A DNA stretch of 64,000 bases from an uncultured Roseburia sp. (GTDB lineage Bacteria > Bacillota > Clostridia > Lachnospirales > Lachnospiraceae): the NCBI GenBank assembly GCA_947062675.1, contig CAMSQM010000006.1:14848-78847 (forward strand). Reading direction: 5' to 3'. The translations under genes and the position numbers were made by a program. This document shows positions 48,893 to 50,097 of this stretch, in pieces. Each line of letters begins with the position of its first letter. Position 1 is the stretch's first letter. The notes beneath the pieces were generated by a model. It was not told the origin of the DNA. It saw only the letters and a program-made list of their open reading frames with translations, and did not search any database.

Positions 48893-49128
48893 GTCAATAT
48901 TGCCCTGATTTCTGTTAATATAATATCTGATAATTCTGCGCTGTCCGGGGTATTATAATATCTGTCAGGAGGAATGCAGCTGACAGAACTAAAAAAATAT
49001 TGCAGAAAAGGGAGGAAAAGAGAATGTTTGAAAAATTTAAGGAATTCTGCGTGGAGAACCTCGAAGCAATTGAGATAAGTGCAGCATATTTATATGGTGA
49101 GGATCTCTGGCGCTACAGCGACAGGTAA
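48893..49128 (+). repeat. Direct repeat copy 2 of the peptide-expression cassette
   Basis: Aligns with 46488-46725. Confidence 0.92.
49024..49128 (+). CDS. 34-aa small protein, copy 2 (MFEKFKEFCVENLEAIEISAAYLYGEDLWRYSDR)
   Basis: GGGAGG RBS; 32 of 34 aa identical to copy 1; terminator downstream. Confidence 0.8.
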   Translation: MFEKFKEFCVENLEAIEISAAYLYGEDLWRYSDR

Positions 49129-49176: not shown

Positions 49177-49223
49177 AAAAAAGGAGACCGGTTTCTGTTC
49201 GACAGGAACCGGTCTTCCTTTTT
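49177..49223. terminator. Bidirectional terminator between peptide copy 2 and the Cys/His-repeat gene
   Basis: AAAAAAGGAGACCGGTTTCTGT-TCG-ACAGGAACCGGTCTTCCTTTTT. Confidence 0.85.
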
Positions 49224-49229
49224 GCGCTG

Positions 49230-49916
49230 TTATGCTTTTTTAATGGTGGAATGCCCGTAATAGGTCTTTCCCTTGTGAGTATGTTTTTTGGTCTTTGTGC
49301 AGTTTGCCACGGTACACTGGCTGTAAGTCTTACTGCCGGTGGCATGGCCGTAATAATACTTGCCGCTGTGTTTGTGTTTGCCGGTTTTTTTGCAGCCGTC
49401 CACGGTACACTGGCTGTAGGTTACGTAGGTGGAATGCCCGTAATAGTAGCTGCCGCTGTGTTTGTGCTTTCCATTCTTTTTGCAGCCGTATACAGTGCAC
49501 GCGCTGTAGGAATGGCCGTTATAGCAGGTTCCGCCGTGATAGTGCTCGCCTGTCGCGGTACAGCCTGCGACGCTGCACGGGCCATGGTACGTATTGGAGT
49601 GGCCGTTGTAGCAGTTGCCGCCGTGGTAGTGTTCGCCTGTTGCGGTACAGCCTGCGACGCTGCAGGGACCGTAGTAGGTCGTATTGGAATGACCGTTGTA
49701 GCAGGTTCCGCCGTGGTAATGCTGTCCGTTTGCGGTACAGCCTGCGACGCTGCACGGGCCGTAGTACGTTGTGCCGCCGCCGGTTCCCGTCGCCGGAACG
49801 CCGCAGCCGCCGCCGTGATGACCGCCGCCGTGTCCGTGTGCCATTGCAACCGCAGGCTCCTGCAGTACGATCAGAACTGCGGCGAGAACCAGAAGTGCTT
49901 TTCTGAGTGTTTTCAT
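49230..49916 (-). CDS. Secreted Cys/His-rich repeat protein (six C-x4-C-x5-H-x-H-x3-[CYT]-Y-x-GH repeats)
   Basis: GGAGG RBS, Sec signal ending AMA, tandem repeats visible in both DNA and protein. Confidence 0.85.
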   Translation of the reverse strand: MKTLRKALLVLAAVLIVLQEPAVAMAHGHGGGHHGGGCGVPATGTGGGTTYYGPCSVAGCTANGQHYHGGTCYNGHSNTTYYGPCSVAGCTATGEHYHGGNCYNGHSNTYHGPCSVAGCTATGEHYHGGTCYNGHSYSACTVYGCKKNGKHKHSGSYYYGHSTYVTYSQCTVDGCKKTGKHKHSGKYYYGHATGSKTYSQCTVANCTKTKKHTHKGKTYYGHSTIKKA

Positions 49917-50097
49917 TGGATGATACCTCCCTGTTGTGATTGACGATGTCCTGTTTTTTTACCGTTCTGATAATAATACGACCGGAACTGGAAAAACCTT
50001 TCATGATTTCCATTTATTTTTTATAATTTTTTCACAGGACGGAAACAGACCGCAGAGGCAGGCGGTATGCACTGAAACTGCGGTCCGGACTGAGCGC

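Follow-up and report, generated by a model that had tools for sequence, protein, structure and literature searches.

Closest described systems

The enterobacterial proteins PcoE/SilE and Zn-induced ZraP are small, are exported and carry flexible His-rich ends. They are produced only when a sensor in the envelope signals metal stress and are presumed to bind metal on the extracytoplasmic side; in ZraP, the mature chain starts with a His/Gly cluster. To our knowledge, almost nothing is known about extracellular metal handling by Gram-positive gut anaerobes such as the Lachnospiraceae, which are dominant butyrate producers of the gut. Here, we describe a gene of an uncultured Roseburia sp. that encodes a small, putatively secreted protein with six tandem Cys/His repeats. 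It is located on a 64,000 nt stretch (assembly GCA_947062675.1, contig CAMSQM010000006.1, positions 14,848 to 78,847), which is referred to as the window. We favor, with slightly less than even confidence, the reading that its product is an exported, probably wall-associated metal-binding protein that is induced by an extracytoplasmic function (ECF) sigma factor and acts as a metal buffer or sponge.

The window protein resembles PcoE/SilE and ZraP in its small size, its predicted export and its predicted flexible His-rich N-terminus, but has no sequence or fold relation to them (no Pfam match). The enterobacterial proteins carry His and Met in helices and are under two-component control in Gram-negatives, whereas the window protein is predicted to combine tandem Cys2His2 beta-hairpin knuckles with an ECF sigma factor in a Gram-positive anaerobe. 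Pneumococcal polyhistidine-triad (Pht) proteins are likewise surface-exposed, Gram-positive and built with five or six short metal-binding repeats holding one Zn each. In contrast to the window protein, they present H-x-x-H-x-H in large folded domains, are controlled by the AdcR repressor and serve Zn uptake; H-x-x-H-x-H is absent from the window protein, and no Pfam or NCBIfam histidine-triad match was obtained. Bufferins, copper-binding ribosomally synthesized and post-translationally modified peptides (RiPPs) of the DUF2282 family, resemble the predicted window product in being small, Cys-based, metal-binding proteins that leave the cell via Sec and protect the envelope. They need a multinuclear non-heme iron oxidase (MNIO) maturase and a partner, whereas no modifying enzyme is encoded near the window gene or its relatives and unmodified Cys2His2 sites are expected. 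Envelope metal sponges, Pht proteins and bufferins are the closest functional analogues, none of which is related to the window protein in sequence, ligand set or regulation.

Classical C2H2 zinc fingers, such as those of REF6 and ZNF410, share the C-[TS]-V-x-G-C knuckle in the first half of the unit. Their His residues are placed 12 and 16-17 residues after the second Cys on a helix, whereas those of the window protein would lie 5 and 7 residues after it on a beta-strand, in an extracellular protein. Membership in zf-C2H2 was rejected on the C-x4-C-x5-H-x-H spacing, the missing Pfam match, the lack of helices in the structure models and PDB matches at E 0.1 or worse.

Export signal, repeat module and family

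The gene and the parts of its product are located in the window as follows:

49230..49916, reverse strand: coding sequence P0001, 228 aa plus stop (from the open reading frame (ORF) listing and its translation)
49926..49932, reverse strand: ribosome-binding site (RBS) AGGGAGG, ending 9 nt upstream of the ATG at 49916
49839..49916, reverse strand: signal peptide, aa 1-26 (MKTLRKALLVLAAVLIVLQEPAVAMA), with a predicted signal peptidase I (SPase I) cut after A26
49773..49838, reverse strand: mature N-terminal His/Gly segment HGHGGGHHGGGCGVPATGTGGG, aa 27-48, with H-G-H as an amino-terminal Cu(II)- and Ni(II)-binding (ATCUN)-type start
49506..49772, reverse strand: repeats 1-3, aa 49-137, near-neutral type TYYGPCSVAGCTAxGxHYHGGxCYNGHS
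49689-49754, 49599-49664 and 49512-49577, reverse strand: Cys2His2 cores of repeats 1-3
49233..49505, reverse strand: repeats 4-6, aa 138-228, Lys-rich type TYSQCTVxGCKKTGKHKHSGKYYYGHS
49434-49499, 49344-49409 and 49251-49316, reverse strand: Cys2His2 cores of repeats 4-6

The gene at 49230-49916 on the reverse strand is real. An identical 228 aa protein is encoded in the same context on contigs of three other samples, and dN relative to the orthologues is 0.16-0.34 with synonymous sites saturated. The N-terminus consists of MKTLRK, a 12-residue hydrophobic core and QEPAVAMA, which is a textbook Sec/SPase I signal, and the predicted cut after A26 obeys the -3/-1 Ala rule. His directly follows A-x-A in 92 of 145 family members. 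This conservation supports the predicted cleavage site and a functional N-terminal His cluster, and the protein is predicted to be exported via Sec. A preliminary description of this DNA, made from the letters of the sequence, had read a signal peptide ending in AMA, a mature start HGHGGGHH and export of the product, all of which agrees with the features predicted here. It had also proposed an N-terminal ATCUN motif, which calls for His at position 3 and a residue other than Pro at position 2, as found in the predicted mature H27-G28-H29. It also calls for a free alpha-amino group on residue 1, which cleavage exactly before His27 would provide. H-G-H directly follows A-x-A in about 27 of 30 orthologues and, of the 92 family members that show His right after A-x-A, in 29 only; HGG, HHG and HGC starts are common in the wider family, where only His1 is general. 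The strict ATCUN site (His at position 3) appears to hold for the subfamily of the window protein. The segment aa 27-48 has a low predicted local distance difference test score (pLDDT) in AlphaFold2 (AF2) models and is predicted to be flexible.

This segment is followed by six matches to C-x4-C-x5-H-x-H-x4-Y-x-GH at aa 55-76, 85-106, 114-135, 140-161, 170-191 and 201-222, so that all six of the tandem Cys/His repeats noticed before were recovered by motif match. The core motif occurs only 15 times in the 6.0 million six-frame residues of the whole 3.0 Mb genome, and 6 of these occurrences are in this gene. Moreover, 20,000 shuffles of the mature chain contained a mean of 0.014 core motifs and a maximum of 2. 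A chance origin of the six-repeat pattern is excluded.

The unit had originally been described as Cys2-His3. However, its third His, that of GH, is replaced by Tyr in some relatives, and the shortest natural unit has a period of 16 aa, corresponding to C-x4-C-x5-H-x-H plus two residues and ending right after H-x-H. This defines the conserved module as Cys2His2. The columns that do not vary within the family are C, V, C, H, H, G, Y and G. The mature chain is devoid of Leu, Met, Phe, Trp and Arg, which makes a conventional hydrophobic core impossible. A metal-organised module would be the simplest reading of an invariant C/C/H/H pattern that spans 14 residues within a chain devoid of hydrophobic residues. 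Beyond these ligands, the window protein has an extra Cys within the hairpin of repeats 1-3 only, plus Cys38. In many orthologues (loci L054-L082) an extra linker Cys (GHSxxC[IV]TYSQC) alternates with an extra hairpin Cys (G-Q-C-YYGH), which suggests additional disulfides or inter-unit metal sites.

Structure prediction by AF2 with the family alignment gave a mean pLDDT of 69, and a two-repeat fragment gave 67. Both models show one beta-hairpin per unit (pLDDT up to ~87) joined by low-confidence linkers, and contain no helix. H-x-H occupies strand one and x-[Y/C]-Y-x strand two, with the C-x4-C knuckle in front of the hairpin. Foldseek searches of both models against the PDB returned no match below E = 0.9, and the recurring choline-binding-repeat and LIM folds were rejected as they reached TM-scores of 0.27 or less in either normalisation.

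Repeats 1-3 had been regarded as nearly identical at the DNA level and recently expanded, which we found not to be the case. Pairwise, they share 82-84% DNA identity and 83-90% protein identity. Since their differences are mostly synonymous, with dS at 0.80-0.90 (dN 0.05-0.07, omega 0.05-0.09), they are old duplicates under purifying selection. Repeats 4-6 are the portion conserved in every orthologue. They contain all 17 Lys and have a pI of 9.7 versus 6.5 for repeats 1-3, in agreement with their earlier characterization as Lys-rich and near neutral, respectively.

Such a cationic C-terminal half, together with an ATCUN-type start as also found in histatins, could point to an antimicrobial or competition factor, that is, a cationic His-rich, histatin-like protein carrying out a metal-potentiated attack on membranes or nucleic acids of competitors. 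However, charge is not conserved, many relatives being acidic with E/D-rich units, and neither an immunity gene nor an export/processing partner was present in the neighborhoods examined. We regard this role as very improbable. The overall composition of the mature chain (20% Gly, 13% Thr, 12% Tyr, 11% His, 8% Lys and 8% Cys) bears on a further explanation, a sacrificial scavenger whose Cys, His, Tyr and Lys residues absorb oxidants or electrophiles at the surface of a strict anaerobe, comparable to Met-rich periplasmic proteins under ECF control. O2-derived species, HOCl and host or dietary electrophiles would be its targets, and the ECF stress-type control described below would suit it as well. 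The strict C-x4-C-x5-H-x-H spacing and omega of ~0.05-0.09 nevertheless indicate a defined site rather than bulk composition, and Met is missing from the mature chain, which leaves the scavenger quite improbable.

Searches of Pfam and NCBIfam with the window protein gave no match (best: DUF7230 at E 0.63). PDB sequence searches gave insignificant matches only (E 0.1-7), all to the C-x4-C knuckle of classical C2H2 fingers, full-text searches of the literature did not find a description of the family, and 'hypothetical protein' is the most specific name that relatives bear in the source databases. The repetitive nature of the sequence limited a word-indexed homologue search to 2 matches; an exhaustive repeat-profile search of 1.84 billion representative proteins (cut-off E <= 1e-3) was used instead. 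This search, suggested in the preliminary description, retrieved 213 clusters, almost all of them from Lachnospiraceae. The earlier statement that the repeat cannot be assigned to a named family remains valid, and the window protein appears to belong to an undescribed family of small secreted proteins with an uncatalogued repeat. A Pfam match to Zf_WRKY19 (E 3.7e-43) was obtained for two long members of the profile list, which probably are Cys/His-repeat proteins of eukaryotes caught by the short profile.

Nearly all family members have 80-290 residues, a signal peptide and 1-12 units. About two thirds carry a His within the last three residues, and 52 end in -HH. The repeat was found in 21 of 401 Lachnospiraceae genera (sampled genomes) and, in a Clostridia-wide sample of 400 genomes, in one genome besides that of the window. 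Close orthologues, collected with the close-subfamily alignment, are present at 32 loci in uncultured Roseburia, Eubacterium, Dorea, mouse-gut Lachnospiraceae and strain 3-2, most of them with five units and the H-G-H start. Repeat number varies between species from 2 to 7 and also within clusters of 90% identity. In the P0005 and P0027 clusters, protein lengths step by repeat size (97/129/166 aa and 110-242 aa), which indicates that repeat copy number is polymorphic between strains, a variation the preliminary description had proposed to look for.

Cys2His2 units also occur in larger proteins. They form the outer C-terminal part of four BlaR1/M56 sensor proteases and of a 726 aa anti-sigma-like membrane protein and are found, in one protein, beside S-layer-homology wall anchors. 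These fusion proteins are P0020 with three other matches, P0004 and P0011. Their position on the outer ends of sensors and next to a wall anchor implies that the units sit outside the cell.

Promoter, sigma/anti-sigma cassette and neighborhood

A Pfam tally of 131 flanking ORFs at 33 non-redundant loci identified only two recurring families, RsgI_M (7 loci) and sigma-70 region 2 (7 loci). Among the 32 close orthologues, no operon partner was conserved beyond lineage synteny. At five loci in five genera, the Cys2His2 gene comes first, followed by a gene for a 160-residue ECF sigma factor and one for a single-pass anti-sigma factor of about 240-325 residues. The genome of the window holds a related cassette on contig C20, outside the window:

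G000:C20:30791-32714: autoregulated cassette with the promoter TGCAAGG-N15-TCGTATTAT, a secreted-protein gene, the ECF sigma and the anti-sigma
G000:C20:31478-31957: ECF sigma
G000:C20:31944-32714: RsgI_M anti-sigma

The C20 sigma is the orthologue of the cassette sigma (58% identity, E 1.8e-60) and matches the sigma70-ECF model above the cut-off. Two relatives of the window gene show the same unlinked arrangement, and their genomes contain the sigma at 85-87% identity. The first gene of the C20 cassette encodes a secreted protein of ~194 aa with three CGYYVDxNGDGxCDHC repeats and the tail GGHHGGRHHGGRHH. This repeat includes a Ca-loop-like D-x-N-G-D-G between Cys residues; a longer antisense ORF masks the gene from naive ORF calling. 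In other genera, too, the first gene of the cassette encodes a secreted Cys/His (or Asp/Cys) protein that is small and has His-rich ends, but its internal repeats are different.

Upstream of the window gene, a predicted promoter of the same type was identified by exact pattern match:

49997..50003, reverse strand: -35 element TGAAAGG of the ECF-type promoter
49975..49981, reverse strand: -10 element TCGTATT, spacer 15 nt

The transcript start is predicted near 49968. TGAAAGG-N15-TCGTATT, a 14/14 match 58 nt upstream of the ATG, occurs in its exact form once in the 3.0 Mb genome, at this gene, and agrees with the autoregulatory promoter of the sigma factor (-35 TG[A/C]AAGG, 15 nt spacer, -10 TCGTATT). 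A 14/14 promoter also precedes the Cys2His2 gene in all five cassette loci and in the two closest relatives of the window gene; the remaining 38 loci score 11/14 or less and have sigma-A-like TTGAAA/TATAAT instead. A relaxed genome scan (at least 13/14, spacer 15, RBS and start ~42 nt downstream) recovered only the window gene and the sigma operon. Promoter identity places the window gene in the predicted two-unit regulon of the C20 ECF sigma. The family-wide exact-pattern scan was noisy (42 matches versus about 27 with a reversed-pattern control), and only matches with a nearby ORF were interpreted. All those with an ORF within 150 nt drive the sigma or a small secreted Cys/His/Asp protein, and no efflux pump or enzyme was found behind the ECF promoter. 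One sigma-unlinked gene behind the same promoter (L142; G371:C2, around 84420) encodes a product in which AFA is followed by the mature start HGHHGGGH. It has two YYYCGGHxAHTHxxGVCPY repeats and a C-terminal stretch resembling, by eye, a peptidoglycan-binding domain; in that other genus, this protein would seem to belong to the same regulon and to be anchored to the wall.

The promoter types also bear on the earlier alternative of a spore or surface protein with disulfide or dityrosine cross-links. Some Bacillus coat proteins have a similar Tyr/Lys/Cys/His-rich composition. However, a Sec signal peptide is a conserved feature of family members, the promoters are ECF-type or sigma-A-type rather than sporulation-type, and no sporulation neighbors were present at the 33 loci. 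This alternative was dropped as extremely improbable.

The anti-sigma factors consist of a short cytoplasmic segment, one membrane helix and an outer RsgI central domain (Pfam RsgI_M, E 2.5e-21). The linked ones keep the D-x-N-P-S-I motif of RsgI and all end in short His/Cys-rich tails. In C. thermocellum RsgI, N-P-S-I is an Asn-Pro autocleavage site that replaces site-1 proteolysis (PMC10328401). The likeness to that SigI/RsgI system comprises the linked anti-sigma with RsgI_M, the D-x-N-P-S-I motif, the single membrane pass and the outward C-terminal sensor. In contrast to it, the partner sigma is a 160 aa ECF-type factor with regions 2 and 4 only and not SigI, the linked anti-sigma lacks the RsgI_N domain, a short His/Cys-rich tail takes the place of the carbohydrate-binding module, and the targets are Cys/His mini-proteins rather than cellulosome genes. 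The pair joins an ECF sigma to an RsgI-type anti-sigma, which would make it a cross between ECF and SigI/RsgI signalling.

This architecture invites the explanation that the secreted Cys/His proteins are signalling partners, either ligands or co-sensors of the His/Cys tail of the anti-sigma, or else structural wall proteins, with metal merely stabilising the fold and the circuit forming a self-reinforcing loop. The cassette order of secreted protein, sigma and anti-sigma behind an autoregulated promoter would fit, as would the high polymorphism of the first gene between genera, the His-rich tails recurring on both partners and the use of Cys2His2 units as outer domains of BlaR1-type and anti-sigma-like sensors. 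Furthermore, the RsgI model requires the C-terminal module to bind something extracellular (PMC10328401). Yet the window gene lies apart from the cassette, its product is missing the shared C-terminal tail, most orthologues do without the ECF promoter and some of their genomes without the sigma. We consider the signalling role unlikely. Rather improbable is a metal-bridged extracellular loop, in which the metal-loaded (or stripped) secreted protein engages the anti-sigma tail and triggers its release. Were it to exist, the system would be a metal-gated self-signalling or kin-specific circuit in gut Lachnospiraceae and not simple detoxification.

Downstream, the transcript of the window gene is predicted to end at a terminator:

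49183..49217, no strand assigned: hairpin with a 16 bp stem and T/A runs on both sides, a bidirectional intrinsic terminator

The hairpin begins 12 nt past the stop codon and is common to the Cys/His repeat gene and a convergent gene for a 34-residue microprotein (MFEKFKEF..., window 49024-49128, forward strand). The microprotein gene is kept beside the repeat gene on contigs of other samples. Searching the gene and its leader against Rfam revealed no riboswitch and one spurious miRNA match on the terminator. Long ORFs overlapping the gene (49251-49943 and 49295-49906 on the forward strand, 49519-50013 on the reverse strand) are by-products of the GC-rich repeat that lack RBS, signal or homologue logic, those on the opposite strand being mirror artefacts of the repeat, and are unfit for annotation. 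Neighbors in the window include a multidrug and toxic compound extrusion (MATE) exporter, a Crp-type regulator, a metallo-beta-lactamase (MBL)-fold hydrolase and ATP-binding cassette (ABC) permeases; these were rejected as functional partners since they are not conserved across the orthologue loci. A RiPP precursor (Cys-every-fifth CefA, NF038108) was rejected as well. The window protein gave no match to this model, one relative scored 24 bits, below the 30-bit cut-off, none of the 33 neighborhoods encodes a radical-SAM or other maturase, and a Sec signal peptide stands in place of a leader peptide.

A predicted extracytoplasmic metal buffer

In the reading we favor, a flexible amino terminus, H-G-H-GGG-HH, would become exposed upon Sec export and cleavage after Ala26, giving a protein of about 200 residues. 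Behind this terminus would come six Cys2His2 modules, autonomous units that each combine a knuckle with a beta-hairpin. Each module is probably too small to fold without a bound ion and would hold one divalent metal in a Zn-type S2N2 site, with Co, Ni or Cd as further candidates, while the H-G-H terminus would contribute a further site of the Cu(II)/Ni(II) type. With its pI of 9.7, the Lys-rich C-terminal half may keep the protein on the anionic cell wall. Expression of the gene would depend on the ECF promoter and thus would not be constitutive. The C20 sigma would be held by its single-pass anti-sigma, with an RsgI-type autocleaving outer domain and a His/Cys-rich extracellular tail, and firing of this sensor would activate only two transcription units, namely the sigma operon, headed by the other secreted Cys/His protein, and the window gene. 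The proposed role is extracytoplasmic metal buffering or sequestration as output of a response to envelope, probably metal, stress. Metal binding and its stoichiometry, wall retention, the inducing signal and the protective role are what we infer from the combined features.

The same ligands could also serve metal acquisition, with a secreted or wall-held, zincophore-like or pneumococcal Pht-like scavenger collecting Zn, Ni or Co, scarce in the sulfide-rich gut, and handing it to an uptake transporter. The metal-ligand anatomy fits this equally, flexible His-rich termini are suited to metal hand-over, and CbiMNQO cobalt transport or cobT/U/S genes are found in the vicinity of two distant relatives. 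The 33 loci, however, have no conserved uptake-transporter neighbor. No metal-repressor palindrome was seen by eye in upstream regions, nor any Zur, Fur or NikR-like operator in those inspected, no operator scan having been run. The promoters point to control by an ECF sigma that responds to signals beyond the cytoplasm, or are of the housekeeping type, and do not suggest a cytoplasmic metal-starvation repressor, and one relative is paired with a cation diffusion facilitator (CDF) efflux gene and not with an importer. Acquisition is an unlikely alternative on balance of these points.

The loci in question are L046:5129-10217, where a distant relative is near CbiMNQO-like cobalt transport genes, and L035:9544-12768, where one is beside cobT/cobU/cobS-like genes, both read from N-terminal sequences. 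At L030:19-1377, a distant relative is directly downstream of a gene assigned by Pfam to CDF cation efflux, whose product has a poly-His C-terminus.

For the metal buffer, the outward-facing sensor, the absence of associated uptake genes or starvation repressors and the relative directly behind a CDF efflux gene point weakly to a response to excess rather than scarcity.

Several observations weigh against the metal buffer. Metal binding is a prediction from the ligand pattern, the AF2 models are of moderate confidence (mean pLDDT 67-69), and no fold match links the models to a known zinc-finger class. ATCUN chemistry needs Cu(II) or Ni(II), while Cu in the anoxic, sulfidic gut is mostly Cu(I). 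The sigma-A-like promoters of most orthologues make ECF control lineage-specific, some genomes with the Cys2His2 gene lack the sigma, and the window protein does not have the ...GHH C-terminal tail typical of cassette-encoded members. Genome co-occurrence of the Cys2His2 gene and the sigma (p = 7e-4 overall) falls to p = 0.12 without the own and the three linked genomes and was not used as evidence. Finally, no efflux pump or metal regulator was seen in the predicted regulon, and the stress could be a non-metal one.

The analysis defines an extracellular Cys2His2 module of 14-16 residues, so far uncatalogued, which occurs in about 200 protein clusters, and a conserved, previously undescribed three-gene cassette of secreted Cys/His protein, ECF sigma and autocleaving RsgI-type anti-sigma together with its promoter. 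From module, cassette and promoter follows a predicted regulon that is open to direct testing and, in this genome, comprises only two transcription units. If metal is bound as predicted, these proteins would represent a new class of extracytoplasmic metal buffers and a compact, tandem, genetically encodable metal-binding repeat, and may be relevant to the effects of dietary Zn and Cu on the microbiota.

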